Counted from the first letter of the stretch, positions 9,131-24,059 are shown. The stretch: 64,000 nt of DNA from Chloroflexota bacterium (GCA_965261345.1 OZ253449.1:288001-352000); one strand, 5' to 3'. Notes: generated by a model not told the origin, from the letters alone. Translations and numbers: made by a program.

Positions 9131-9417
9131 GGGAATTTTTGACTCGTTCCGCTCGGTGCGAAGATTCATCGATTTGTTTGCATCATCGCCGAAAGAATCC
9201 GCCGCCCGCTTGATAAAGCGGCAGAATGATTCTTACAGGGCAAGCGCGCGGCCGATGGCCAGACGGCGGCCATTTTCGGCTTCGCCACGCCCGCCCAGAG
9301 CCGTGCGCCCGGAGCGTCTGGCAGCTTCCGCAAAAAGCAGTTAACGGCGCGGCAAAACCGTCAAACAACACAAAATTAGCGGCGCCAAACAACACCGGAA
9401 TGCGGCCCACTGCGGAT

Positions 9418-11148
9418 ATGAATTCGAACGAACACATCCGTTTCGAACCTCACGAGAACCCTCCACCGGCGCTTACCTTCGGCGCCGGGTTGCAGGCGGC
9501 TTCGGTCATCCTGGCCCCGGTGGTATTGACCGTGGTCATCGTCGCGCGGATCGCCGAGCAACCCGAGAACTACATTTCGTGGGCAGTATTTGCGGCCCTG
9601 GCGATAAGCGGCGCCACCACTGTGCTCCAGGCGGTCCGGGTTGGCCGCGTCGGCGCCGCCCACGTTTTGATTATGGGAACATCCGGAGCCTTTATTGCAG
9701 TGTGCGTGGCGGCGTTGGTACAGGCTGGACCGGCCACGATGGCAAGCCTGATCGTCGTATCGTCGCTATTCCAGTTCGCGTTGGCCGCGCGGCTTGCCCT
9801 GCTGCGGCGGATTTTTACGCCGATCGTTTCCGGAACGGTGATCATGCTTATCGGCGTTACGGTGATGCCAATACTTTTCGATACTCTCCAGGACGTGCCC
9901 GCGGACACGTTGCCGGCCGCGGCCCCGATTGTGGCCCTGGTAACGCTGATCACAGTGGCGGCGCTGGTCATCCGCGGTCCACCGGCTTGGCGACTCTGGT
10001 CGCCATTGATCGGTGTGGTGGTGGGCTGTGCGGTCTCCGCGCCATTGGGACTTTACGACGCCCAGGCGGTGCTTGACGCACCGTGGTTTGGCGTGCCGCT
10101 GGATTCGTGGCCGGGATTCGACCTGACTCCAGGACCCGAATTTTGGGGGCTCCTTCCGGCTTTCGTGATGGTCACGATGGTCGGCGCGGTGGAGACAATC
10201 GGCGACGCGGTGGCTATCCAGACGATCTCGCGAAGGCGGCCGCGGGCGACCGACTTTCGGTTGGTGCAGGGCGCCCTGAACGCCGACGGGGTTGGCAACC
10301 TGCTCTCCGGCATCGCCGGGACGATGCCCAACACGACCTATTCGACCAGTATTTCGCTCGCCGAGGTAACCGGAATCGCTGCCAGACGGGTGGGAGTGGT
10401 AGTAGGGGTCGTATTCTTCACGCTGGCATTCCTGCCCAAGGTCGCCGCGATGCTGATCGCGATCCCGGGTCCGGTGGCCGCTGCTTACATCGCGGTGCTG
10501 GTGGCGCTGCTGTTTGTCCAGGGAATGCGAATCATCGTCCGCGACGGATTGGACCACCGCAAGGCCACGGTAGTTGGGTTGTCCTTTTGGATCGGCGTTG
10601 GCTTCCAGAACCAAGTGATATTCCCGGACCTGCTAGGCGACGGATTCGCGGGTATCCTGCTCGGTAACGGAATGACGGCCGGGGCCCTGACCGCGTTCCT
10701 GCTGATGTCATTCATGGAGATGTTCGGGCCCCGCCGCCAGAAGCTCCAGGTCAACCTGGAAGAATCCGCCCTCGGCAGGGTTGACCAGTTCTTGCGCGAA
10801 TTCGCCAAACGCCGCGGTTGGAACGCGGCATCCACCGATCGGTTGGCCTCAGCTGGCGAAGAGACTCTGGCGGTGCTACTACAGGACGGCGATGAACGCC
10901 GCGTCGGCCCCGAGCGGCGGTTGGTCATTGCCGCCCACGTCGAAAGCAATTCGGCGGAATTGGAATTTACGACTGCGCTGGCCGGTGAGAACATGCAGGA
11001 CCAATTGGCCCTGCTCGGCGACCTGCCGCCGATCCCGGATGAGCGCGAGGCGCCGTACAGGCTGCTGCGCCATTACGCTTCATCGGTGCGACACCATAAA
11101 TATCATGACGCAGATTATGTAACGGTGATCGTCGACCACCAGACTTAG
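9418..11148 (+). CDS. NCS2/SLC23 (xanthine/uracil permease-like) transporter with a ~135-aa C-terminal soluble domain
   Basis: ENPPPALTFGAGLQ, LRRIFTPIVSGTVIMLIG, VETIGD, GALNADGVGNLLSG, PNTTYS; soluble tail from about 10732. ATG 9418 chosen over upstream in-frame starts. Confidence 0.88.
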   Translation: MNSNEHIRFEPHENPPPALTFGAGLQAASVILAPVVLTVVIVARIAEQPENYISWAVFAALAISGATTVLQAVRVGRVGAAHVLIMGTSGAFIAVCVAALVQAGPATMASLIVVSSLFQFALAARLALLRRIFTPIVSGTVIMLIGVTVMPILFDTLQDVPADTLPAAAPIVALVTLITVAALVIRGPPAWRLWSPLIGVVVGCAVSAPLGLYDAQAVLDAPWFGVPLDSWPGFDLTPGPEFWGLLPAFVMVTMVGAVETIGDAVAIQTISRRRPRATDFRLVQGALNADGVGNLLSGIAGTMPNTTYSTSISLAEVTGIAARRVGVVVGVVFFTLAFLPKVAAMLIAIPGPVAAAYIAVLVALLFVQGMRIIVRDGLDHRKATVVGLSFWIGVGFQNQVIFPDLLGDGFAGILLGNGMTAGALTAFLLMSFMEMFGPRRQKLQVNLEESALGRVDQFLREFAKRRGWNAASTDRLASAGEETLAVLLQDGDERRVGPERRLVIAAHVESNSAELEFTTALAGENMQDQLALLGDLPPIPDEREAPYRLLRHYASSVRHHKYHDADYVTVIVDHQT

Positions 11149-11452
11149 CGCCTTTGGGAATTTAAGAACCCTGGCGGCTGACCGACCATTTACCGCTCGC
11201 CCGTCGGCTTTCCCGCAAACCCGCTGTTCGGCCGGCGACGATCCTTCGGCGGTGGGACGCAATCGATCGCCGCCGGATTTTTGAAATGCTCGCCCGCGGT
11301 TCCAGCCTGCGGCCCAAGCGGGCGATCCTCGTCTTTGGCTCACACCGAACCGGTCAGAACTCAGATCGTCGCAAATAACGCGCATCCCAATTGGTTCGGA
11401 CAGACCCGTCCAACGCAGAATTGCCGACGCTCGGATTCGACCGGAAATCAAA

Positions 11453-12400
11453 ATGCCGCTTGACCACACCCTGTTCCTGCCCGAGTCCATCAGCCCGCAA
11501 ACGGCCGCGTTCAATGCCGAATTGGGCCGACTGATGGCCAAAGCCCCACCCGCCGGTGACGATCCGGTTGAAATGCGGCGACGACACCGCGAGGGTCGGC
11601 CCTGGCAACCGGCGGCACCCAAGCTTGACTGGGCCCAGGAAGATAGTTGCCCCGGAACGGGCGGTCCCATCCCGCTGCGGATCTTTACCCCCGATGTATG
11701 CAACGGCACCCATCTTCACATCCACGGCGGGGGATTCATCTTTGGCGGATATGACCTGCAGAACGACATCCTCTGGCGAATGACCCAAGCCGGCAGCGTC
11801 GCGGTTGTAAGTGTCGAATACCGCCTGGCACCGGAACATCCGTACCCGGCCGGGCCCGACGACTGTGAGGTAGCAGCGCATTGGTTGATTTCCAATTCAA
11901 GATCTCGTTTTGGGACCGATCGCTTGCTGAACGGTGGTGAATCAGCCGGCGGCAATCTGTCGGCGGTAACGGTGCTGCGCATGCGCGATCGTTATGGGTA
12001 CACCGATTGGGCGGGCGTGGACCTCGTCTACGGAGCGTTCGATTTCACCGGTGCCTGCCCCTCGCGCGAACTGATCGGGCGCAACGGCCTGGTCTTAAGC
12101 AAACCGGGAATGGAACGGGTGCAGGCCCAATATCTCGGCGATGCGGACCGGGACGATCCCTACGTGTCACCCATGCGCGCCTCCCTGGACGGCCTTCCGC
12201 CGGCCCGGTTTAGTTGCGGAACCAGTGATCGGCTTATCGACGACACACTATTTATGTATTCGCGCTGGATGGCGGCCGGCAATCCCGCCGAAATCGCAAT
12301 CTATCCCGGCGGAACCCACGCCTTCGACGAATTCCGCACCCCACTCACCGACGCATCCTATGAGCGCCGCTACAAGTTCATTCCCCAAGTGTTGGGTTGA
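11453..12400 (+). CDS. HSL-family (family IV) esterase/lipase
   Basis: HIHGGGF, VEYRLAPEHPYPAGPDD, GESAGG, terminal GGTHAF. Confidence 0.9.
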   Translation: MPLDHTLFLPESISPQTAAFNAELGRLMAKAPPAGDDPVEMRRRHREGRPWQPAAPKLDWAQEDSCPGTGGPIPLRIFTPDVCNGTHLHIHGGGFIFGGYDLQNDILWRMTQAGSVAVVSVEYRLAPEHPYPAGPDDCEVAAHWLISNSRSRFGTDRLLNGGESAGGNLSAVTVLRMRDRYGYTDWAGVDLVYGAFDFTGACPSRELIGRNGLVLSKPGMERVQAQYLGDADRDDPYVSPMRASLDGLPPARFSCGTSDRLIDDTLFMYSRWMAAGNPAEIAIYPGGTHAFDEFRTPLTDASYERRYKFIPQVLG

Positions 12401-12593
12401 TACGCCTTCGTTGCAATGTTTGGTGGTCGGGCAACATGGCCTGTCAATCGAGAGGTTGACCGGTTGCTGGGCTCATGGCTTGCGCTGCGTTGACCGGTGA
12501 GGGCGCTTAGGGTGGTTGGCGCAATTGGATAGGCTTTCCGTATCCGCCAGCACCGGTTGATTGCCCCTGTAGCTGCCCTGGCGGCTGATCGGG

Positions 12594-13981
12594 GGTTGTG
12601 TCCCAATAGTTATGCAAAAAGCAGGCCCGTAAAAAGAAGCGGGCCACGGCGTCTCCTTAAATTCTTGAGTTAGCACAACTCGGAGCCTTAAGGGAGGCAA
12701 CCAGTGACCCGATTGAAGAATAACCACAACGCTATTGACTGGCGCCAAGAGCTCAAAAGTGATCCCGAGCTCTTCCGCGGCATCATCCACCAGACCGTCC
12801 AGGAGATCGGAGGAAGCCGAGATGGACGAGGCGTTGGGAGCCGGTAAGAGTGAGCGTACCGCTGGCCGTCGCGGCTACCGGAGCGGCTACTACGGCCGCG
12901 GACTTATCACCCGGGTGGGCAAGATCAGACTCAGGGTGCTGACAGGACCGCCAGGGACGCTTTAGCACCGAGATCTTTAAAGCGCTACCAGCGCAGTGAA
13001 AAAGCCTTGGTGAGCGCCCTGGCTAAAGATGTACGTCCAGGGGGTATCGACCAGGAAAGTCAAGGCCATTACCGAAGAGCTGTGTGGTCACGCATTCTGA
13101 AGCCTCCAACATCTCCCGGATTAATAAGCAGCTAGATGCCGCTCTGGAAATTGCCCGAGCGCCCACTGGAGGCCAACTATCCCTACCTGATCCTTGATGC
13201 CCGCTACGAAAAGGTACGCGAGGAGGGAGTCATCCGGTCCCAGGCGGTCCAGATCGCCATCGGCATCAACTGGGAGGGCAGACGCTCGGTACTGGCAGTC
13301 GAGCTGGTAAACCGTGAGAGTAAGAGCAGCTGGCGCGACTTTCTGTCCCGGATGCGCGATCGCGGCCTCAGCGCCGTGCAGTTTGTCGTTACCGATAACC
13401 ACGCCGGACTAAAGCAGGCGATCGCCGAGTACTTACCCGAAGCCATCTGGCAACGCTGCTATGTCCACTTCCTGCGCAATGCTCAGCGACTACCTGCCGC
13501 GAAGGGCCGATGACGACTGTCTCCAAGAACTTCGCTGGCTCTACGATCGGCGCGATCTCTCCGAGGCCCGTCGGGACCTCTTAGCCTGGCTGGGCAAATG
13601 GCAGGGCCGCTATCCCAGGCTCTGCGACTGGGTAGAGAGCGGCATTGAGGAGACTTTCAGCTTTTACCGTCTGCCGCGGCAGCACTACAAGCACCTTAAA
13701 TCCACCAACATGCTGGAGCGGTTAAACGAGGAGATAAAGCGCCGGACGCACGTGGTGCGGATCTTTCTTGGGTCGTGCGAGTTGCCTGCGCTTGGTCAGG
13801 GCGCTTGCGGTCGAACAGCACGAGAACTGGATTGAGGCCAGCCGCTACCTGAACATGGCATTCCTGAAAGAGCAACGCAGAGAACTGGAGTTGATCGTTA
13901 CCGCCTAAATTTCAGCGAACAATCAAGCTAAATTCGATAAGGTGACGCCAAAGCTAATTGCAGAACTTTCGGCACATAACT
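12594..13981 (+). mobile_element. IS256-family insertion sequence with terminal inverted repeats and 8-bp target-site duplication
   Basis: Left IR 12595-12618 and right IR 13957-13980 match at 18/24 positions. TGATCGGG is duplicated at 12586-12593 and 13982-13989. Confidence 0.9.
12704..13908 (+). pseudogene. IS256-family (Mutator-type DDE) transposase, multiply frameshifted
   Basis: Fragments EAEMDEALGA..GYRSGYY, RYQRSEKALV, MYVQGVSTRKV, YPYLILDARYEKVR, WQRCYVHFLRN, KSTNMLERLNEEIKRRT are spread over different frames; GGAGG precedes GTG 12704. Confidence 0.9.
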
Positions 13982-14140
13982 TGATCGGGCCCGCGGGCGG
14001 GCGTGCCGGCAAGGCACCTTGGCAACTAAATTGACTTTGAGTCCATGCATCGCAATGGCGAACTGCGATACGGCCGGGTAAATTCCTAGCGCTTGCAGAT
14101 TCTTGAGGAAATCTGCCTTGGAACGCCGGTCTCTGCGCGT

Positions 14141-15127
14141 TCAACCAACCTTGACGAGCAGCTTGCCCCGTGACTTGCCTTGCTCTAACTGCCGATGGGC
14201 GTCGGCCGCCTCCGGCAGGTCAAAAATACCGCCGATCTGGACCGTTAGTTGGCCCGCACGGTAGAAATCGAACATTGCATTCACCCGTGCCAACAGCTGA
14301 TCGCGATCACGCACGTAGAAGAATGAAACCCCCACCGTTAAGAAAACAGTGCCGGGCGCCAGCATTCCGGTATCAAAAGCAGTTGCCAGCCCGTCGCGAT
14401 GTCCGCCCGACTTGTAGCCATACAGGACGCAACGGCCGCCGCGGCGACAGGCTTTGATCGAACCGGGCAAGGTGGAGTTACCGATCCCGTCGTAGACCAG
14501 GTCCACGCCCCCGCCGCTGGCCGCGCGCACCTGCTCAACCCAGTCGCCGGAGCGGTAGTCGATTGCCGCACTGGCCCCCAACCCGGTCACAAACTCAAAC
14601 TTTCCCGGCGAGGTGGTTGTCAAGACCTGGCCCGCGCCGGCCAGCCCGGCCAGTTGGATCGCAAGGTGTCCCGTTCCCCCGCCACCGGAATGGATGAGAA
14701 CCGATTGGCCCGCACTCACCGGGGCGATATCAAAAATTAGGGAATGGGCCATGATGCCCTGCAGCATCAACGCCACCGCAATCTCCGGCGGTACACCGTC
14801 TGGGATCGGAACCGCACGCTCGGCTGGAATCGCCGCCAGCTCGCTGCAACTGCTCGGCAGCCCGGGCAACCACCAGACCACCGGGTCGCCAACCGTAAAC
14901 CCAGGGGCCTTCCCGCCGACTTCGACGACCGTTCCGCAACCCTCGGTGCCCAGGATCATTGGCAGCGGGGTTCCGCGTTCGCCGCGGCGATGGTCAACAT
15001 CGGAAAAATTGAGACCGGCGTACTCGACCCGCACCAACAACTGATCGGGTTCGATTTTGGGGTCAGGAACCTCCCCAACCTCCAAAACCTCGGGCCCGCC
15101 GTATCTGGCGGCCATGAGTGCCTTCAA
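14141..15127 (-). CDS. NADPH:quinone oxidoreductase (MDR/zeta-crystallin family)
   Basis: YGGPEVL, AGLNFSD, LGTEGCG, LIHSGGGGTG, GVDLVYDGIG, SRGKLLV. Confidence 0.9.
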   Translation of the reverse strand: MKALMAARYGGPEVLEVGEVPDPKIEPDQLLVRVEYAGLNFSDVDHRRGERGTPLPMILGTEGCGTVVEVGGKAPGFTVGDPVVWWLPGLPSSCSELAAIPAERAVPIPDGVPPEIAVALMLQGIMAHSLIFDIAPVSAGQSVLIHSGGGGTGHLAIQLAGLAGAGQVLTTTSPGKFEFVTGLGASAAIDYRSGDWVEQVRAASGGGVDLVYDGIGNSTLPGSIKACRRGGRCVLYGYKSGGHRDGLATAFDTGMLAPGTVFLTVGVSFFYVRDRDQLLARVNAMFDFYRAGQLTVQIGGIFDLPEAADAHRQLEQGKSRGKLLVKVG

Positions 15128-15413
15128 TATTCAACTCCAATAAACGGACCGGTTGTGGGGCTCATATTTTGCTCGGCCGATTGTTGGCCCGGCAAACCAC
15201 GGTTGCCCAACTCCCTGCCACGCAGACGGAAAAACGGATTTCAAACGGGAGCTTCACCGGTCGGGATAGTGGGTCGCAATCGACCGGATTTAGATGCATG
15301 GCAATTTACTCAATATGGACTACCCGCCGGAACGTCCAGCGGTTGACCACCTCAGGGTTGGGCAGTTTCCGCAATGGGTCAGCGCCGATAGACTGGGCTG
15401 GCCATTTTGACGA

Positions 15414-16253
15414 GTGAATGGACTTGACGCGATAGCAAATCGAGTGCCCGTCACCAAGTTGCTGGCGATGAAACGGGCCAGGGAACCGATAGTTTGCGTT
15501 ACGGCCTACGATCATGCCGTCGCCCGCCTGGTCGACCAGGCGCAAATCCCGGTGATATTGGTCGGCGACAGCCTGGGCCAGGCGGTGCTTGGGCACGCTA
15601 CGACAATTCCGGTTACCTTGGGCGACATCATCCACCACACCAGGGCGGTTGTGCGCGGGGCTCAGCGGGCGCTGGTTGTGGCCGACATGCCTTTCCTGAC
15701 GTACCAGATAAACGCTTCCGAAGCATTGCGAAATGCGAGTCGGTTGCTGCAGGAGGGGGGAGCGCAGGCGGTAAAGCTTGAAGGCGGAAAAAGTGTAGCC
15801 GCGATCATTGGCCGGCTTACCGACAGCGGCATTCCGGTCATGGGCCACGTCGGCCTCACCCCGCAGTCGGTACACCAACTCGGCGGTTACCGGGTCCAGG
15901 GGCGCACCGCCGCCCAGGCCCAGCGGATCATCGAAGACGCCCAGGCCGTGCAGGAGGCGGGAGCGTTCGCGGTCGTTTTGGAATTGATACCGGCGGAACT
16001 GGCCCGCGAGATCTCCCAGACGGTGGCCATCCCCACAATTGGAATCGGTTCGGGGGGCGGTTGCGACGGCCAGATTCAGGTGATAAACGACATCCTTGGC
16101 CTGGGCGCCTGGCAGCCCCGCCATGCCAGGAAATACGCCGATCTCAACGCCGAGGTACTAAGGGCGCTGCAAGCCTACGCGGCCGAAGTTGCCAGCGGGC
16201 AGTTTCCGGGTGTCGGTCCACGGTCCCAGGCCCCAACGCATGACGCGGGATAG
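15414..16253 (+). CDS. panB: 3-methyl-2-oxobutanoate hydroxymethyltransferase
   Basis: VTAYD, ILVGDSLG, VVADMPF, AVKLEGG, MGHVGLTPQS, IGIGSG..CDGQ. Confidence 0.96.
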   Translation: MNGLDAIANRVPVTKLLAMKRAREPIVCVTAYDHAVARLVDQAQIPVILVGDSLGQAVLGHATTIPVTLGDIIHHTRAVVRGAQRALVVADMPFLTYQINASEALRNASRLLQEGGAQAVKLEGGKSVAAIIGRLTDSGIPVMGHVGLTPQSVHQLGGYRVQGRTAAQAQRIIEDAQAVQEAGAFAVVLELIPAELAREISQTVAIPTIGIGSGGGCDGQIQVINDILGLGAWQPRHARKYADLNAEVLRALQAYAAEVASGQFPGVGPRSQAPTHDAG

Positions 16254-16263
16254 GCGATAAGAA

Positions 16264-17118
16264 CTGATTCAGCAGGTTTCAAGGATCGCCGGGCTAAGGG
16301 CCATATTGCGCCACGCCCACCGGCCAATCGGCCTAGTGCCGACGATGGGTGCGATCCATCGGGGGCATATTTCATTGGCTCGCGCCGCTCGCTCCGAGTG
16401 CGCGACGGTCGTGGCCTCGATATTTGTCAATCCCACTCAATTCGGGGCCGCTGACGACCTGAACGAATACCCGCGTCCGTTAGATAACGATTTGCAAAAG
16501 CTAGCGGCGGTCGATGTCGACGTCGCGTTCACACCCACCACGGCGGAAATGTACCCCGTTGGGTTCGCGGTACAAGTGCGGGTTGGGGGCCCGGCGCTGC
16601 CGCTGGAAGGTGCGGCGCGACCCGGGCATTTCGACGGCGTGGCCGCCGTGGTGGCCAAATTGCTCATCCAATCGGACGCTGATCGAGCTTACTTTGGCCT
16701 AAAGGACGGCCAGCAGGTCGCCGTCGTGAAGCGGGTCGCCCGGGACCTGGATATTGCAACCGAGATCGTCGCCCTACCGACCGTGCGTGAACCGGACGGG
16801 CTTGCCGTCAGTAGCCGCAATCAATTCCTAACGCCGCCGCAGCGGGCGGCGGCGGCGGTCATCTACCGGGCGCTGGCCGCGGCTCGGACCGCTCATGCGG
16901 ACGGCTTGCGCGACCCCAGTGAACTTGTGGCTGCCTGTCGGCAAACGATCGAAGCCGAATCGCTAATCGACGCGATCGACTACGTGGCGGTAGTGGATCC
17001 GGCAACGATTGAATCGTGGCCCGGCCACGGCGATTGCATGCTGGCGGTAGCAGTGCGGCTGGGGAGCGTCCGGCTGATCGACAACTTCATCTTGGAAGGC
17101 TGCCGCGATCTGATCTGA
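16264..17118 (+). CDS. panC: Pantoate--beta-alanine ligase
   Basis: VPTMGAIHRGH, SIFVNPTQF, RPGHFDGV, VREPDGLAVSSRN, RLIDN. N-terminal similarity extends upstream of TTG 16306 to about CTG 16264; start uncertain. Confidence 0.94.
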   Translation: MIQQVSRIAGLRAILRHAHRPIGLVPTMGAIHRGHISLARAARSECATVVASIFVNPTQFGAADDLNEYPRPLDNDLQKLAAVDVDVAFTPTTAEMYPVGFAVQVRVGGPALPLEGAARPGHFDGVAAVVAKLLIQSDADRAYFGLKDGQQVAVVKRVARDLDIATEIVALPTVREPDGLAVSSRNQFLTPPQRAAAAVIYRALAAARTAHADGLRDPSELVAACRQTIEAESLIDAIDYVAVVDPATIESWPGHGDCMLAVAVRLGSVRLIDNFILEGCRDLI

Positions 17119-17512
17119 TCCCGTGGCCGGCCGATGAAGCGGGCGCCGGAAAACGGGAATGCGCCATTGGGGCATCTGCCTACGCCAGCGGTTCAATTTC
17201 TTGACCGCCACTGAAGGTGCTTGAGCTTGGAATCGTGATTATTGCGCAGGCGGCAGTCTGGTAATTACCAGATCCGGCGCCCTTTACGCCGGTCACGTGA
17301 ACCTTGGCAACATCGGATCGGGCTACACCCTGCAAAACGTGAACCTCCAACCGCTGAAGTGGTTCGGCCGCTGTTGAATGTCCGCGCTCACCGATCAACC
17401 CGACCCAATCGTCGCCCTCCCATAATCTCGGGCCCGCGTCGCGGGCAACCGGTGGAGCAATTTGTTGGACGGGTTCCGGCGGTTACAAAAATTTCATTTC
17501 CATTCACCGCCT

Positions 17513-19426
17513 CTAGATGCCGGAAAAGGTCGGTTGCGGTTCCCGGTCCGGAGTGGTCTGCAGCGGCAGCACCACGCAGGAAGGACGCTCTGAGTCGTGA
17601 AATATCGACTGCACCGCGTTTACGTAGGACCGATCGATCCCCAGCGGGCCGCCAGTATTGGGGTTTACGTCAAAGCGCGGGAAATTGCTTGAGGAGATGT
17701 CAACCCTGATCCGGTGACCCGCCTTGAAAAGGTTCGAGGTCGGGAACAACTCAAATTCAAACAGGTACGGTGTGCCGGGTTCCATGAGCACCTCGCGGTC
17801 CCAGCCGCAACGGAAGCGGGCCCGGATGATCGAATCGGTTATGTTGATTGCCAGGCCGTTCGGGTACCGCTCCGTCGGTGGCAGCACTTCGATCAGCTTG
17901 GCGGTAAAGTCGGTATCGACCGCCGTTGAAGACGCCCACAGCCGTACCGAAATCGGGCCGGTGGCCGCAACGTCGGATTCGAGCTCCCCGGTCTGGAAGG
18001 TAAGCACGTCCGGGCGCATATTTAGCGCCGAATCGTCCTTCGAACCGATGAACCTGGGGCCGCCCCGCTGGTCGTAGGCCCCTGCATTCATCCAGGGTTG
18101 GGCCGCCGATATCGACCCGCCGATGGTTGGCACCGGGTTGGTCGGATCGAATGTGAATCGGCTGGGCCGTATATCAGATTTCGCCGGGGGCGCGGTTGAC
18201 AGCCCGCCGCCGGCCTGCAGGTAGTGCTCGGTCGGCCGCATCCCGGGCGGAGGCCAGGTCTCGGCCTCGCGCCAGAAACCGCCGCGGTTCAATCGGCCGG
18301 ACGGGTTGAGCGAATCGTTCCCGGTCCCCATGGTGAAGTAACGAACCGACGGGAAACGCGCTGCGGCCGAATCCATTCCTTTTAGGTAATGGTCAAACCA
18401 GCTGAGCCGGAGATCCTTGTAGTTGATGTGTGATCCGGTGCCAAAGTCCGAATCACCCGAGTTGGTGATCTCGTACTGGCCGTGGGTCCACGGCCCCATC
18501 AGCAGGCGCTGGTCGCTGCGCTTGGTGCGGCGGTAGTCGAGAAAGTTCTGGATGGTGTTGCGCGGATAGGTATCGTACCAGCCCCCAAGGTACAGGGTGG
18601 GCACGTCGGCATGCTCTTCAACGTACTCGCCGGGGGCATATCCGCGTTGCTTCCAGTATTTCCCGAAGGTGCCGTTGGTGAGGATGTCGATCGCCCAGCG
18701 CTCATAGCTGGGCAGTCGGCGCAGTACAGTCGCTCCCTCCCTGAGAGGGAACGACTCGATGATCTTGCTAAATGCGATCGCGTCCCGGCTTTCGTAGGTT
18801 GGAAAGGCCACGATGTCATTGAGCACGTGCGGATAGATGCTTTCAAGTTCGGCTCGCAGGCCCGGATCGGCGGCCGCTTCCTTGCTGTCAACCGCCATGC
18901 GGAAGGCGTAGATTAGAAATCGCTGCTCCAACGCCCCGTTCTGCCGCATCGCGGAGTGGAAGTAGTTGGACGCCCCTACTGCGACGATCATGGTCGAAAG
19001 GTGCGGCGGGTCAAGTGTTGCCAACGCCGACTGGACGCTGCCGGGGTAGGAGTCGCCCATCGTGCCGACTTGGCCATCGGACCATGGCTGGGTCGCCAAC
19101 CACTCGACGGTATCGTAACCGTCCGGCGCCTCGTGGGCGAACGCGTACCACTGTCCCTCGGACGCAAAACGTCCCCGAACATCCTGGATAGCGCATACGT
19201 AGCCGCGCCGAGCGAAATATTTGCCCTTGGTCACGTTGACCGCTGAAGCTTTGTTGTAAGGCGTGCGTTCCAGCACGGTCGGGAACGGCCCCGCCAGGGC
19301 CTCCCCCTCCATGGCCGGGAGGTAGATGTCGGTGGCCAGGCCAATTCCATCGCGGGCCTCCACCATCACGTTGGAATGGCAGTGGACTTCATACCCCTGG
19401 GCCGAGCCTTGATATTTTTTGGTCAT
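17513..19426 (-). CDS. CocE/NonD family hydrolase
   Basis: RDGIGLATDIYLP, ERTPYNK, QDVRGRFASEG, GDSYPG, GGWYD, GPWTHG, SSNFPRFDVNPNTG. Confidence 0.92.
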   Translation of the reverse strand: MTKKYQGSAQGYEVHCHSNVMVEARDGIGLATDIYLPAMEGEALAGPFPTVLERTPYNKASAVNVTKGKYFARRGYVCAIQDVRGRFASEGQWYAFAHEAPDGYDTVEWLATQPWSDGQVGTMGDSYPGSVQSALATLDPPHLSTMIVAVGASNYFHSAMRQNGALEQRFLIYAFRMAVDSKEAAADPGLRAELESIYPHVLNDIVAFPTYESRDAIAFSKIIESFPLREGATVLRRLPSYERWAIDILTNGTFGKYWKQRGYAPGEYVEEHADVPTLYLGGWYDTYPRNTIQNFLDYRRTKRSDQRLLMGPWTHGQYEITNSGDSDFGTGSHINYKDLRLSWFDHYLKGMDSAAARFPSVRYFTMGTGNDSLNPSGRLNRGGFWREAETWPPPGMRPTEHYLQAGGGLSTAPPAKSDIRPSRFTFDPTNPVPTIGGSISAAQPWMNAGAYDQRGGPRFIGSKDDSALNMRPDVLTFQTGELESDVAATGPISVRLWASSTAVDTDFTAKLIEVLPPTERYPNGLAINITDSIIRARFRCGWDREVLMEPGTPYLFEFELFPTSNLFKAGHRIRVDISSSNFPRFDVNPNTGGPLGIDRSYVNAVQSIFHDSERPSCVVLPLQTTPDREPQPTFSGI

Positions 19427-20060
19427 TGGGGTAATGCGCCTGTCCTTGATGTCGCAGCGGGTTAACGGTGCGCTCGGCGGGCCCCGGGTCATTCCCACCG
19501 GGGGCCATCGATGCCATTTCGGCCTCGCCTATGGAAAGTATGTGGCCAACTGGATCTCGACTACCACTCTGTTGGTCAATCCCGCGAATACGACCCAACG
19601 GGACGGTCAACTCCGCGCCGCGATCATCCTGGATCGATTGCGCGACGGTCAATATCGCAAATCGCCCCATCGGGGTATCAACGTCCCGGACCCGAACCGG
19701 CGGGATCGAATTGAGCGATCCGTTGGAGCCAGTGGGCTGTACCCTATTTGCTCAACCTGAAGAGAATTCGAATACGGTTTAATTCTTCGGTAGGTGAGAG
19801 GTTTGAACGGCTTCCGTTGATTGACCATCCTGCAGCCGGGCAAAAAACGCCGATCGCTTTGACCAAATCGGTTGCGCGTCGGGCCGAAAATTGCGGCCGT
19901 GCTCGGATTTCGGCAGATCCGACATGACACCGGAAGTGCCCGGGCCGGCCACGGCCAATGCTCGGGGTCTGGAAAGTTCATTTTTCCCGGCCAACCCCGG
20001 CAGTCCGGTCGAAGGATTTCCAATCCAGATCCCTCTGACGCCGATGCGCGAGGCGTTTTA

Positions 20061-21801
20061 GTGGCGGCCCTAGTTTCCCCAAATCCCCGAAACGAGGCCC
20101 ACGAGAACCCACCGCTTGCGCGATCGATTGGCCTCGGTCTGCAGTTCAGCGTAATTGCGTCCGCCACCCTGTTGGTTACGCCGGTCATCGTGGCTACGGC
20201 CTCGGGGAGGGGAGAAGCATATCTGATATGGATGGTCTTTGCCTCGCTGGTGGTCGTTGGCATTTCAACCCTGGTTCAGGTCCGCCGGTTGGGGCTGGTT
20301 GGAATGGGGGCGGTATTGCCGATGTTTACCGCCGCCTTCTCCATCCCTTTCTGCATTACCGCGGTCGTGGACGGTGGCCCGGCGACCCTGACCGCCCTGA
20401 TGATCGTTGCGGCGGCGGTCCAGTTGGTAATTTCCCGGTGGCTGTTCATCCTGCGACGAATCGTGACGCCGACCGTGGGCGGAATAGTAATGATGATCCT
20501 CTCCATCACCCTGGCCTCGGTCGTATTCGGACTGCTCGATGAGGCATCAACTATCGAGCCGGTTTCGGCGCCCCTAACCGCCCTGGCAACACTGGTGGTG
20601 GTCGGGGCCCTCACGCTGCGCGGCAATGCGGTGTTGCGACTCTGGGGGCCGGTTATTGGAATCGTTGCTGGCTGCCTGGTTGCCGCAGCTTTCGGCGTTT
20701 ACGACTTTGAACGGGTCGTTCAAGCCCCCTGGGTGGGCATCCCCAACGAGTGGCCGGGGGTGGCGGTGGATTTTGGCGTCGCCTTCTGGACGCTGCTGCC
20801 GGCGTTCATGTTCCTGGGCGTGATCATTTCGATCCAGATGAACGGGGCGGCCATCGCGCTGCAGCGAGTTTCCCACCGGGAGGCCCAGGCGGTCAATTTC
20901 CGGGAGGTGCAGGGGGCACTGTCAGGTGGCGCGTTGAGCAATCTGCTCGCGGGTGTTAGCGGGGCGGTGCCCAACATCGCCAATCCGGGTATCGTCTCGT
21001 TTACCCAAATTACCGGGGTTGCGGCACGCCGGGTGGGATACATCGTTGGCTGCACATTCATTGCTGGTTGCATTCCTACCCAAGGTGTCCGGGCTGCTAA
21101 GCACCATTCCCGGACCGGTTATGACCGGATACCTGGTCCTGATCACCGGCACGCTTTTCGTTGACGGTGCGCGCACGGTAATCCAGACCGAGCGGAACCA
21201 GCACAAACTCCTGGTCGCCGGCGTCTCGTTCTGGATTGGAGCGGCGTTTCAATTTGATCTGTTCACCCTTCCGAACGTCGGCGCGGTTTGGGGCGCGATG
21301 CTAAAGAGCGGAGTAACCACCGGCGGGCTAACCGCGATGGCGGCGGTCCTGTTCCTTGAACTGACCAACAAGCGGCGTATGCGGTTCGAATCGCGGCTGC
21401 ACATCGACGCGCTTCCGGATCTAAACGAGTTCATTGCCCGGTTCGCGCGCGACCGCCGTTGGGGCGAGTCGATCCAGGACCGCCTCGGCGCGGTGGCCGA
21501 AGAGACCCTGCTGACCCTGGCGCCATTGGATCTCAGTTCCGATGGAGGGTCGCAGGATGAACGGCGTCTGGTCGTGCTGGCGACCAGCGATGGCCCGGTG
21601 GCCGACCTCGAATTCATCGGCGGCGGTAACGAGGAGAACCTGGAGGACCAAATCCGCCAGCTGCAACTGCACGACGAAGAAAGCCCCGCCGAAAACGAGA
21701 TTTCGCTGCGGCTACTGCGTCAGTACGCGGCATCGGTCCAGCACCAACAGTACTTTGACAAGGACATCATTACGGTCCGGGTGGAGCCACCCGGAAATTG
21801 A
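20061..21801 (+). pseudogene. Second NCS2/SLC23 permease with the same C-terminal domain, split by an apparent 1-nt insertion near 21060-21063 (true pseudogene or sequencing error)
   Basis: ORF 19872-21164 matches the N-terminal part of 9418-11148 (HENPP..GLQ, LRRIVTPTVGG). ORF 20953-21801 continues from LVAFLPKV through the C-terminal domain. Confidence 0.82.
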
Positions 21802-22271: not shown

Positions 22272-24059
22272 TTACCCCGGCCAAACCAGCTGAACCGTAA
22301 CGACCGTTACGCCCAACACGAGCAGCGTGAGCGGTGCACCCGCCCGCGCAAATTCGAGATAACGGTATCCGGCCACGTTGTAAACGAGCAGGTTGGCCTG
22401 ATGACCAAATGGCGTCAAAAAAGCGGTTGAGGCGGAGATCGCCACCGTAATCATTAGCCCGGTTGCCGAAATCCCCACATCTTGACCGGCCAGGGATAGT
22501 GCTATCGGGGCCATGATCACGACCGCGGTGGCATTGGCGGTGGCCTGAGTGAGGAGCGCGGTAGTTAGAAAAAGGCCCGCCACCAACGCATGCGGACCGT
22601 AACCGGCGATGGCGGCCGCCAGCTGCTCGGCGACAGCCGCAGCCACCCCGGTAGATTGCATCGCTCCCCCGATTGGAATCATCGCCCCGATAAGGATTGG
22701 CAACTGCCAATCGACGGCATCATACAGGCGGCGGCGGGAGATGACCCTGAGCGCGAGCATCGCCAGGATTCCGGCCATCACCGCAATTGCAATGTGGGTC
22801 AGACCAAGGGCCGCCACCGCAATTACGGCAACTAGCACCAGCAGCGCCCGCGGTGCGCTGGGCGAGGCATTTTCCCGATGGTCGGTTCGCTGCCCCAGCA
22901 ATAGGAAGTGGGAATCCTGGGCCAGCGCGTTTAAACCATGGCGCGGGAATTGCACCAGCAACACATCGCCGGAGCGAATGCGCAGCCGCGCCAGATTGGT
23001 GTGCAATCGTTCGCCGTGGCGCCAAATCCCCAGCACCAGGCCTCCGAAACGCTGGCCGAAACCGTATTTGGCAAGCGAGGTGTCGGCGGTGTCAAACCAG
23101 GGAGTGGCCACGATTTCGGCCACGATGGTGTTGGCGTCGTCGGCGATCGAGCCATGCCATGCCCGCGCGTGCCCGACTCCGGGGAGTTTGGCCAGGGCCA
23201 TCACATCGTCATATTCACCGGCAACCACCAACGTGTCATTGATAAAAATCTGATCGTTTGAAGTGACCGTTCGTTGGCGCGACCCGCGGCGGCGGATCTC
23301 CAACACCGAGAGGCCGTATTTGGCCCTCCAGCCGAGCTCATATAAGCGGGCGCCCGGGTCGGCAAACGAGCCGGATATCTGCAGTTCAAACAGGAAGGTG
23401 CGTACCTGTTCAACCAATCCGGCATCGCCCTGGGCCGGTCGCGAGGGCAACAGGCGATGACCGATAAGGACAAAATAAATGATCCCGGTGACCGCCACCG
23501 CCAATCCGGTGGGGGCGAAGTCGAACATCGTCAGCCGCCCTTGGCCCGACTCGTTTAGCAGGTCTGCGGCGATTATGTTAGGCGGCGTGCCGATCAGGGT
23601 GGCCAGGCCTCCAAGCAGCGATCCGAACGAAAGCGGCATCAGCAGCTTCAGGCTGGAAATCCGTGCGGTCCGCGCCATGCCGGTGACTGCCGGTAGCAGG
23701 ATGAGGGTAGCGGCAATGTTGTTGATGAACGCCGACATGGCCCCCACGCTGGCCATCGTCATGGCCAGCAGGCCGCTGCGCGATCCACCGGCCACGCGCG
23801 AGAGGAACGAGGCGATAGCCTGGGGAACGTCGGCGTCGGTGATCGCGGCTGAAAGAATGAAGAATGCGACCACCGTCACCACCGCCGGGTGGGCAAATCC
23901 CGCCAAGGCGGTGACCGGTTCGATGACGCCGGTTAGGGCCATGAGCACCAGGCCGATAACCGCCACGATTTCGGGCCTTATTTTTTCGGTAGCAAACAGA
24001 ATCACCATTCCGGTCAGGACGGCGATCGTGATCCAAGCCGAGGGGGAGAGCGATTCCAT
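22272..24059 (-). CDS. SLC13 (di/tricarboxylate/sulfate) permease with TrkA-C (RCK_C) domains
   Basis: SAFINNIAA, LGGLATLIGTPPNII, central soluble repeats, FLTPFGHQANLLVY..GY. Confidence 0.92.
   Translation of the reverse strand: MESLSPSAWITIAVLTGMVILFATEKIRPEIVAVIGLVLMALTGVIEPVTALAGFAHPAVVTVVAFFILSAAITDADVPQAIASFLSRVAGGSRSGLLAMTMASVGAMSAFINNIAATLILLPAVTGMARTARISSLKLLMPLSFGSLLGGLATLIGTPPNIIAADLLNESGQGRLTMFDFAPTGLAVAVTGIIYFVLIGHRLLPSRPAQGDAGLVEQVRTFLFELQISGSFADPGARLYELGWRAKYGLSVLEIRRRGSRQRTVTSNDQIFINDTLVVAGEYDDVMALAKLPGVGHARAWHGSIADDANTIVAEIVATPWFDTADTSLAKYGFGQRFGGLVLGIWRHGERLHTNLARLRIRSGDVLLVQFPRHGLNALAQDSHFLLLGQRTDHRENASPSAPRALLVLVAVIAVAALGLTHIAIAVMAGILAMLALRVISRRRLYDAVDWQLPILIGAMIPIGGAMQSTGVAAAVAEQLAAAIAGYGPHALVAGLFLTTALLTQATANATAVVIMAPIALSLAGQDVGISATGLMITVAISASTAFLTPFGHQANLLVYNVAGYRYLEFARAGAPLTLLVLGVTVVTVQLVWPG

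Follow-up and report, generated by a model that had tools for sequence, protein, structure and literature searches.

Results

A permease with a soluble C-terminal tail

The 64,000-nucleotide stretch of DNA analyzed here (the window) comes from a Chloroflexota bacterium (GCA_965261345.1 OZ253449.1:288001-352000). An initial annotation, made from its sequence alone, had pointed to two paralogous NCS2/SLC23 permeases, each ending in a soluble tail that by eye followed the HATPase_c_2 layout of RsbW/SpoIIAB-type kinases. We describe the intact one of the two, copy 1, and the family of tailed permeases to which it belongs. The tail is predicted to adopt an RsbW/SpoIIAB-type GHKL fold that has lost its ATP-binding motifs, and tailed permeases are associated with a partner-switching operon that contains a STAS gene and no sigma factor gene; tentatively, we propose that this STAS protein may dock on the tail. 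Copy 1 consists of the following features.

9400..11148, plus strand: copy 1 gene, an NCS2-type permease with a C-terminal RsbW-like tail, 582 amino acids (open reading frame [ORF], translation, identical database protein, and PF00860)
9484..10605, plus strand: copy 1 transmembrane core, the PF00860 match, homologous to UapA/UraA, with T-S-I-S-L-A-E-V-T-G in place of the NAT signature
10732..11145, plus strand: copy 1 tail, about 135 amino acids, predicted degenerate RsbW/SpoIIAB-type GHKL domain (AlphaFold2, Foldseek, VIA-align, and hhalign)

The stop-to-stop frame that holds copy 1 is ORF 9226-11148 (plus strand), and the start at 9400 follows from an identical database protein of 582 amino acids. 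Copy 1 is intact, and its span of 9418-11148 in the initial annotation needs correction at the start only, as position 9418 is an in-frame ATG six codons on. Pfam assigns copy 1 to PF00860 (Xan_ur_permease) alone, with 153.7 bits over residues 87-460 of ORF 9226-11148 (gathering score, 27); neither a PF00916 core nor a C-terminal STAS domain (PF01740) was matched. The approximately 140 residues that follow the PF00860 match have no Pfam match at an E value of ≤1.

The carrier core

The core aligns with UapA (5i6c; E value, 1e-17) and UraA (3qe7; E value, 4e-13), and this homologous transmembrane core is what the family has in common with the NCS2/NAT carriers UraA, UapA, and XanQ (PF00860, TC 2.A.40). 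The tailed family differs from them in failing both the NAT signature and the NCBIfam cutoffs. All six NCBIfam matches to the copy 1 core are under cutoff, including pbuX (201.9 versus 414) and TIGR00801 ncs2 (180.7 versus 291.8). The NAT signature, which we take to be [Q/E/P]-N-x-G-x-x-x-x-T-[R/K/G] in transmembrane helix 10, is replaced at the corresponding UapA position by T-S-I-S-L-A-E-V-T-G in the window protein and by x-x-S-x-S-x-x-x-x-T-G in the consensus of 22 full-length family members. The nucleobase signature is lost in both. The glutamate of transmembrane helix 8 in UapA and UraA, a substrate-binding residue, is present in the window protein (E-T-I-G-D, versus E-C-I-G-D in UapA) and is below majority in the consensus of the 22 members. 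The carrier is thus best classified, from its sequence, as a divergent secondary transporter of the NCS2/NAT superfamily, and because the NAT signature is lost and the helix 8 glutamate is not the majority residue in the family, its substrate is probably other than a canonical nucleobase.

A tail of this kind is foreign to canonical UraA, as the initial annotation had stated: UraA chains are 429 to 437 amino acids long and have no 135-amino-acid C-terminal domain.

Tail sequence, fold, and lost ATP-binding motifs

The tails of copies 1 and 2 are 38% identical over 141 residues (E value, 1e-23), and the motifs that the initial annotation had listed as shared are found in both: F..FA..R.W, DRL, EETL, ERRLV, and LEF, followed by EN..DQ and RLLR.YA.SV.H..Y.D.D..TV.V. 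Across 53 aligned tails, E48 is invariant and a further 20 positions are conserved at ≥90% (L13, F24, W34, R41, L42, E47, L53, L68, E82, F83, N91, S112, R114, L115, L116, A120, V123, H125, Y128, and V138). A phmmer search with the tail against 1.84 billion representative proteins returned 479 clusters at an E value of ≤1e-3, 229 of them at ≤1e-10. Among the matches listed, the proteins are about 570 to 597 amino acids long or are shorter fragments. Nearly all of those that reach the end of the tail, among the 150 matches listed, stop within some 15 residues of the protein C terminus; the exceptions are P0202, P0203, and P0167, which continue for about 100 to 200 residues beyond the tail match.

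The PF13581 model has no match at an E value of ≤1 on the three ORFs that make up copies 1 and 2 (the tails lie in two of them), and a genome-wide PF13581 search found three other genes, the tails not being among them. NCBIfam has no match to the tail either, so that the tail family has neither a Pfam nor an NCBIfam model. Searched against PDB with phmmer, the tail gave a best E value of 0.85; a PDB profile search gave as its best match a GAL4 fragment (E value, 0.017), which we dismissed as chance.

Structure prediction is more informative. An AlphaFold2 model of the tail, built from the alignment of 53 tails, has a predicted local distance difference test score (pLDDT) of 87.7 and a predicted template modeling score (pTM) of 0.81, with elements in the order beta-alpha-alpha-beta-beta-alpha-alpha-beta-beta. 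Its top Foldseek match in PDB is RsbW in the RsbV/RsbW complex (6m37; E value, 9e-8; probability, 1.00), followed by UsfX (8ih8 and 8jzt), SpoIIAB (1l0o, 1tid, 1til, 1th8, and 1thn), and the RsbW domain of Rv1364c. In VIA-align, the tail superposes on RsbW with a Z score of 16.2 and a root mean square deviation of 1.9 Å over 114 of 115 residues. The Z scores for UsfX, SpoIIAB, Rv1364c, and SiaB are 15.3, 14.5, 14.3, and 11.6; over the RsbW, UsfX, SpoIIAB, and Rv1364c structures, Z ranges from 13.6 to 16.2 and the deviation from 1.8 to 2.8 Å. The ATP domains of histidine kinases and of PDK/BCK, with Z scores of ≤7.8, lie a clear gap below the RsbW-type proteins. The clusters nearest to the tail in a feature search of the ESM Atlas have PF13581 in 26% and 39% of their members (score, 0.97). 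The model therefore bears out the layout that the initial annotation had recognized by eye, and the tail is predicted to have an RsbW/SpoIIAB-type GHKL fold.

At the level of sequence, the relationship to RsbW-type kinases appears faint. A single hhalign comparison of the 53 tails with 16 canonical small HATPase_c_2 proteins from relatives gave a probability of 62% and an E value of 7.8e-5 over 74 columns, and a single full-length comparison of the same sets gave a probability of 50 to 75% and an E value of 2.5e-5 over 116 columns. The alignment pairs W34 and E47/E48 of the tail with W23 and E36/E37, which are invariant in the kinases. The N-box asparagine (kinase N41) is aligned with V52 of the tail and the D-x-G motif (kinase D71/G73) with T85/L87, while G97-G98 of the kinase GGLG motif are opposite a gap and G100 is aligned with column 112, a serine in the family and a proline in the window copy. 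None of the three ATP-binding motifs is thus matched in the profile-profile alignment, and the claim that N-box Asn, DxG, and GxG are missing is therefore right. With these motifs absent, the tail should not bind Mg-ATP.

In summary of the comparison with the RsbW/SpoIIAB/UsfX kinases (PF13581), the fold matches over the whole tail and the W and EE motifs are held in common; unlike those kinases, the tail goes undetected by PF13581, lacks the ATP motifs, and is fused to a 14-helix carrier rather than being free-standing.

Distribution of tailed permeases

Relatives of the tail are encoded at no fewer than 591 loci, according to a search that was built on a 13-row tail alignment and covered 185,579 species with one genome each. 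Locus-level counts from here on refer to the best 80 of these at least 591 loci, with taxa counted by hand. Chloroflexota account for 71 of the 80 (54 Dehalococcoidia, 3 Caldilineaceae, and 14 unclassified), and the remainder are 6 Latescibacterota, 2 Acidimicrobiia/Acidimicrobiales, and 1 unclassified "bacterium." The tail closes an ORF of 520 to 675 amino acids in 67 of the 80 loci; another 8 have shorter frames, 3 of them at contig ends, and 5 are outside the ORF filter. Within the window's class, 67 of 84 genomes carry 1 to 7 copies, nearly all in frames of 575 to 620 amino acids, and 16 of the window's 21 closest relatives have a tailed permease. Because uncultured Chloroflexota and Latescibacterota have this family in abundance, with multiple copies in a genome, and because the nucleobase signature is gone, it probably moves a substrate important to these bacteria.

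In some Latescibacterota members, the PF00860 core is preceded by an N-terminal extension of about 350 residues that matches no Pfam family, as in locus L119 (4224-7028, minus strand; genome G189); frames of 850 and 975 amino acids are likewise extended Latescibacterota members. The L119 locus also holds an RsbW-type gene directly adjoining an ammonium transporter gene.

The paralogs of copy 1

Two further tailed permeases are present in the genome that contains the window (G000), one of them within the window.

20061..21063, plus strand: copy 2, 5' part, permease core, with the GTG start of the initial annotation, ending at the frame-shifting extra base
21064..21801, plus strand: copy 2, 3' part, +1 frame, last transmembrane segments and tail
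21373..21798, plus strand: copy 2 tail, homologous to the copy 1 tail
G000:C1:~1566294-1568100 (locus L002, 1489-3200), minus strand, outside the window: copy 3, tailed permease with two in-frame TGA codons

Copy 2 had been taken for a single open frame (20061-21801) and is in fact split over two frames by one extra base, at 21063. Its 5' part shares the frame of ORF 19872-21164, which holds the permease core (PF00860, 69.9 bits), and its 3' part shares the frame of ORF 20953-21801, one base off, which holds the last helices and the tail (PF00860, 33.3 bits). The change of frame is visible in the DNA within TTCATTGCTGGTTGC. Two public runs (X1 and X2; depth, 2 to 3) are identical to the window, extra base included, and may be the source of the assembly. 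A 30-kb contig of another study (X6) is 99.4% identical to copy 2, with 11 substitutions in 1741 bases, and lacks base 21063, which brings core and tail into one frame; the same contig also lacks one G of the GGGG run at 20209. Contigs of run X9 stop at 21062 and resume at 21064. Given that X6 lacks the base and that the X9 contigs break there, the frame of copy 2 is disrupted in this assembly at a strain-variable position. Positions 21063 and 20209 are both single-base length differences between strains, and in either strain one of these sites shifts the frame of copy 2.

In copy 3, the TGA codons lie at L002 2991 and 1989, one of them at a position where homologues often carry tryptophan. 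Recoding of TGA was considered and rejected: the codon serves as a normal stop, terminating 21 of 50 long window ORFs, and we therefore read both codons as nonsense mutations. Copy 1 is consequently the only intact one of the three copies in the genome. The two window paralogs had been presented as one candidate system; that only one of three copies is intact and that the window copies have no conserved neighbors in common speak against that view.

A sigma-less partner-switching operon associated with tailed permeases

A genome-wide STAS search of G000 found two small genes, the permeases not being among them. One of these belongs to an operon and the other is an orphan.

G000:C1:1982271-1987834 (locus L110, 1272-6835), minus strand, outside the window: five-gene operon of STAS, REC-SpoIIE phosphatase, 138-amino-acid HATPase_c_2 kinase, Peripla_BP_6, and HAMP-HisKA-HATPase_c kinase
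L004 1486-1881 (G000:C1:1150070-1150465), minus strand: orphan STAS gene, 131 amino acids, adjacent to a gene of the enolase superfamily and with neither a kinase nor a phosphatase gene in its vicinity

No sigma gene is present in the operon. Its five genes occur in identical order, at 39 to 62% identity, in G013, a genome of a different family, and the gene order is also found in Latescibacterota genomes. We regard the orphan STAS protein as a possible second partner of the tails.

The association between tailed permeases and this sigma-less STAS operon is new in this analysis. Among the 84 genomes of the window's class, 66 have both the tail and a small RsbW, 1 has the tail only, 3 have RsbW only (G061, G064, and G067), and 14 have neither. 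In Latescibacterota (101 genomes), the corresponding numbers are 40, 0, 10, and 51. Three genomes (G050, G016, and G045) lack both tail and RsbW even though their genus-mates have both, and STAS is missing from them too. With a kinase profile built only from the window's relatives, all 5 of 5 tail-bearing Latescibacterota, Acidimicrobiia, and Caldilineaceae genomes were found to have the same kinase type (E values, 3e-27 to 1.5e-46). The initial annotation had looked to STAS, SpoIIE, and sigma genes as possible company for this architecture; a STAS/PP2C/RsbW operon does accompany it, in two phyla, and the sigma part falls away, there being no sigma gene in the operon.

Physical linkage is harder to dismiss than co-occurrence counts. 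In the Latescibacterota genome G088, the permease (L066 6666-8417, plus strand) lies between two operon copies, STAS-REC_SpoIIE-RsbW (10722 to 8471, minus strand) and STAS-RsbW-Peripla_BP_6 (5693 to 3637, minus strand), and the end of the kinase gene is 51 bp from the 3' end of the permease by ORF calls, or 81 bp between search matches. The same locus has a SulP-STAS gene 3.4 kb from the tailed permease. In G138, the permease is placed between STAS-REC_SpoIIE-RsbW and RsbW-Peripla_BP_6-histidine kinase. The operon STAS gene of G150 is 4.6 kb from the permease, with a sulfatase, a Glycos_trans_3N match, and a divergent Na:Ala symporter intervening; the operon is bordered by this symporter and an ammonium transporter. 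Over the 40 tail-positive Latescibacterota genomes, the kinase is within 10.5 kb of a tail in 10 and within 20 kb in 12, in at least four kinds of arrangement, against about 1% expected, by our own arithmetic, for random placement in genomes of 5 to 6 Mb. Kinase-to-tail distances in the window's class are 7 kb in G013 and 4.9 kb in L085. Two further loci have an orphan STAS gene by the permease and no kinase gene nearby: in L070 it is convergent, 111 bp from the permease 3' end, and in L087 it is about 650 bp upstream on the same strand.

Gene neighborhoods of related loci

Pfam was scanned over 203 of 306 flanking ORFs, two on each side, from loci L009 to L062; loci L063 to L088 were covered by our own RsbW and STAS profiles only. 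The 103 ORFs that were viewed singly include one extracytoplasmic function (ECF) sigma factor, two genes off in L016, and no STAS or SpoIIE. For the other 100, no STAS, SpoIIE, or sigma family is among the 25 commonest families listed. The commonest neighbors in related loci are paralogous permeases, Peripla_BP_6 proteins, ABC ATPases, and subtilases.

Discussion

When these results are placed in the context of partner switching, a role for the tail can be suggested. We propose, with confidence short of even, that the dead tail is a putative docking site for the STAS protein of the sigma-less operon, linking its phospho-switch to transport. The binding protein and the histidine kinase would sense a ligand outside the cell and thereby control phosphatase activity; the REC-PP2C phosphatase and the active RsbW kinase would then set the phosphorylation state of STAS. 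Unphosphorylated STAS would bind the permease tails as RsbV binds RsbW, the tails being unable to phosphorylate it, and this docking would turn transport on or off. We infer that the tail may in this way keep the noncatalytic role of such domains, namely, the binding of unphosphorylated STAS. The data fit equally well a reverse flow, in which the state of transport would change the amount of free STAS and the permease would act as a transceptor. It is conceivable, if not quite probable, that this constitutes a partner-switching module with transporters, and not a sigma factor, as its output. Every permease would then bear a dead version of the module's kinase on which STAS can land, and one phospho-switch, fed by the binding protein and the histidine kinase, would gate, or be informed by, 1 to 7 paralogous carriers per cell.

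Several observations weigh against STAS docking. No STAS, SpoIIE, or sigma gene is found between or beside the window copies, and clustering of ORFs over the 80 related loci gave no neighbor family present in more than 10 of them; within 8 kb, a kinase gene is present at only 2 of the 80 loci and a STAS gene at 4. The permease genes are several and scattered, so that a single operon would need to act on all of them. The operon's binding protein is only distantly related to the permease-flanking Peripla_BP_6 (28% over 155 residues). Tail and operon can also be found apart: the single tail-only genome of the window's class, G026 (170 contigs), yielded no small RsbW, and G061 has the operon without a tail. 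The real target of the kinase could be a second region 3-containing sigma factor of G000, encoded at a distance of 540 kb from the operon. Finally, clade or habitat could produce the co-occurrence counts, because these run over related genomes and have no control family.

The last point leads to the alternative that comes closest, in which the tail is an autonomous cytoplasmic module that dimerizes or allosterically gates the permease, like STAS in SLC26/SulP, with no partner among the operon's proteins, and the link with the operon reflects a shared clade or habitat. That most loci have no STAS or RsbW neighbor, and that the co-occurrence counts ignore kinship, would both fit. RsbW and SpoIIAB form homodimers, NCS2 carriers function in dimeric form, and the last transmembrane helix leads directly into the tail; we count these points in its favor as well. 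The alternative is nonetheless somewhat unlikely, as it leaves unexplained the permease inside duplicated operon copies in G088 and G138, the orphan STAS neighbors in L070 and L087, and the presence of the kinase in 40 of 40 tail-positive Latescibacterota genomes.

The kinase gene is involved in co-occurrence and linkage as much as the STAS gene, and the tail has the invariant W and EE in common with this kinase type. It could therefore be speculated that the dead tail and the active RsbW kinase form a pair through the RsbW dimer interface, which would tether or modulate the kinase at the membrane according to the state of transport, so that the permease would be the sensor (a transceptor). 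The orphan STAS genes of L070 and L087, with no kinase gene nearby, argue against such pairing, which we consider doubtful.

More doubtful still, and quite improbable in our estimate, is a remodeled nucleotide pocket that would bind a small ligand other than ATP, so that the carrier would sense an intracellular metabolite through its tail. By sequence position, the conserved polar residues E47, E48, E82, N91, S112, R114, H125, and Y128 are at or beside the N, G1, and G2 boxes, which would suit such a pocket; however, E47/E48 and W34 may be structural, because active kinases conserve them too. Sequestration of a sigma factor at the membrane by a tail that keeps anti-sigma function is the least probable reading and a very remote one: the SpoIIAB-sigma-F (1l0o) and UsfX-SigF (8jzt) complexes are among the best structural matches and G000 has a nonprimary sigma factor with region 3, but no sigma gene is found in the operon or beside the window copies, the neighbor ORFs viewed singly contain just the ECF sigma of L016, and the families listed for the others contain none.

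For the proposed docking of STAS on the tail, the nearest concept is that of the SLC26/SulP-STAS carriers. SLC26/SulP proteins are 7+7-fold carriers with a C-terminal cytoplasmic STAS domain, and the tailed permease likewise combines a carrier of the 7+7-fold class with a C-terminal cytoplasmic domain from the partner-switching toolkit. It differs in that the tail is the RsbW-like kinase/anti-sigma partner and not the STAS antagonist and in that the core is PF00860 and not PF00916. The tailed permease is thus the complementary, mirror-image case, as the initial annotation had proposed.

The operon itself resembles another known arrangement. HptB-HsbR-HsbA of Pseudomonas is a sigma-independent partner-switching system with a REC-PP2C phosphatase, and the operon described here is similarly free of sigma genes and encodes STAS, REC-SpoIIE, a histidine kinase, and a kinase of the HATPase_c_2 type. 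In contrast to HptB-HsbR-HsbA-like systems, it has the latter kinase as a small protein of its own and includes a periplasmic binding protein. The output proposed here, a transporter tail, has to our knowledge no precedent among sigma-independent partner-switching systems. In GlnK-AmtB and in inducer exclusion by EIIA-Glc, covalent modification of a small protein decides whether it binds and gates a transporter; the analogy is functional, with no relation in sequence or fold, and it rests wholly on the conjectured binding of STAS to the tail.

The initial annotation knew of no characterized example of the architecture, and a full-text literature search agrees, having found no description of it. 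The accessible portion of one candidate paper (PMC12879404) holds nothing on tailed permeases.

Carriers of the UraA fold have been known to borrow the STAS half of the toolkit; here, a large family appears to borrow the dead RsbW-type half. If STAS docks on the tails, this would be a new mode of posttranslational control of secondary transporters, as well as a new output class for partner switching that would provide a function for widespread orphan STAS genes. Were the reading of transporters as output true, the mirror image of the SLC26-STAS carriers would exist in at least three bacterial phyla.

Other genes in the window

Between copies 1 and 2 lie a split Mutator-family transposase, panB, and panC. 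The transposase (PF00872; 13136-13835, plus strand) is read in two overlapping ORFs, 13136-13513 and 13461-13835, which match profile positions 153 to 262 and 262 to 355, and is a frameshifted or decaying insertion sequence.

Copy 1 is flanked by an alpha-carbonic anhydrase gene and an esterase gene. The former (PF00194; 8202-8999, minus strand) is divergent from copy 1, which may be a hint to the substrate or chance. Bicarbonate was considered as the substrate on the strength of this gene and of beta-type carbonic anhydrase (Pro_CA) in 3 of 100 neighbor ORFs of related permeases, and it was set aside because this evidence is too thin.

Copy 2 is flanked by an S15 peptidase gene and a CitMHS-family carrier gene (22272-24059, minus strand). 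The CitMHS carrier has an internal TrkA_C domain and is another transporter in the window with a cytoplasmic regulatory domain.

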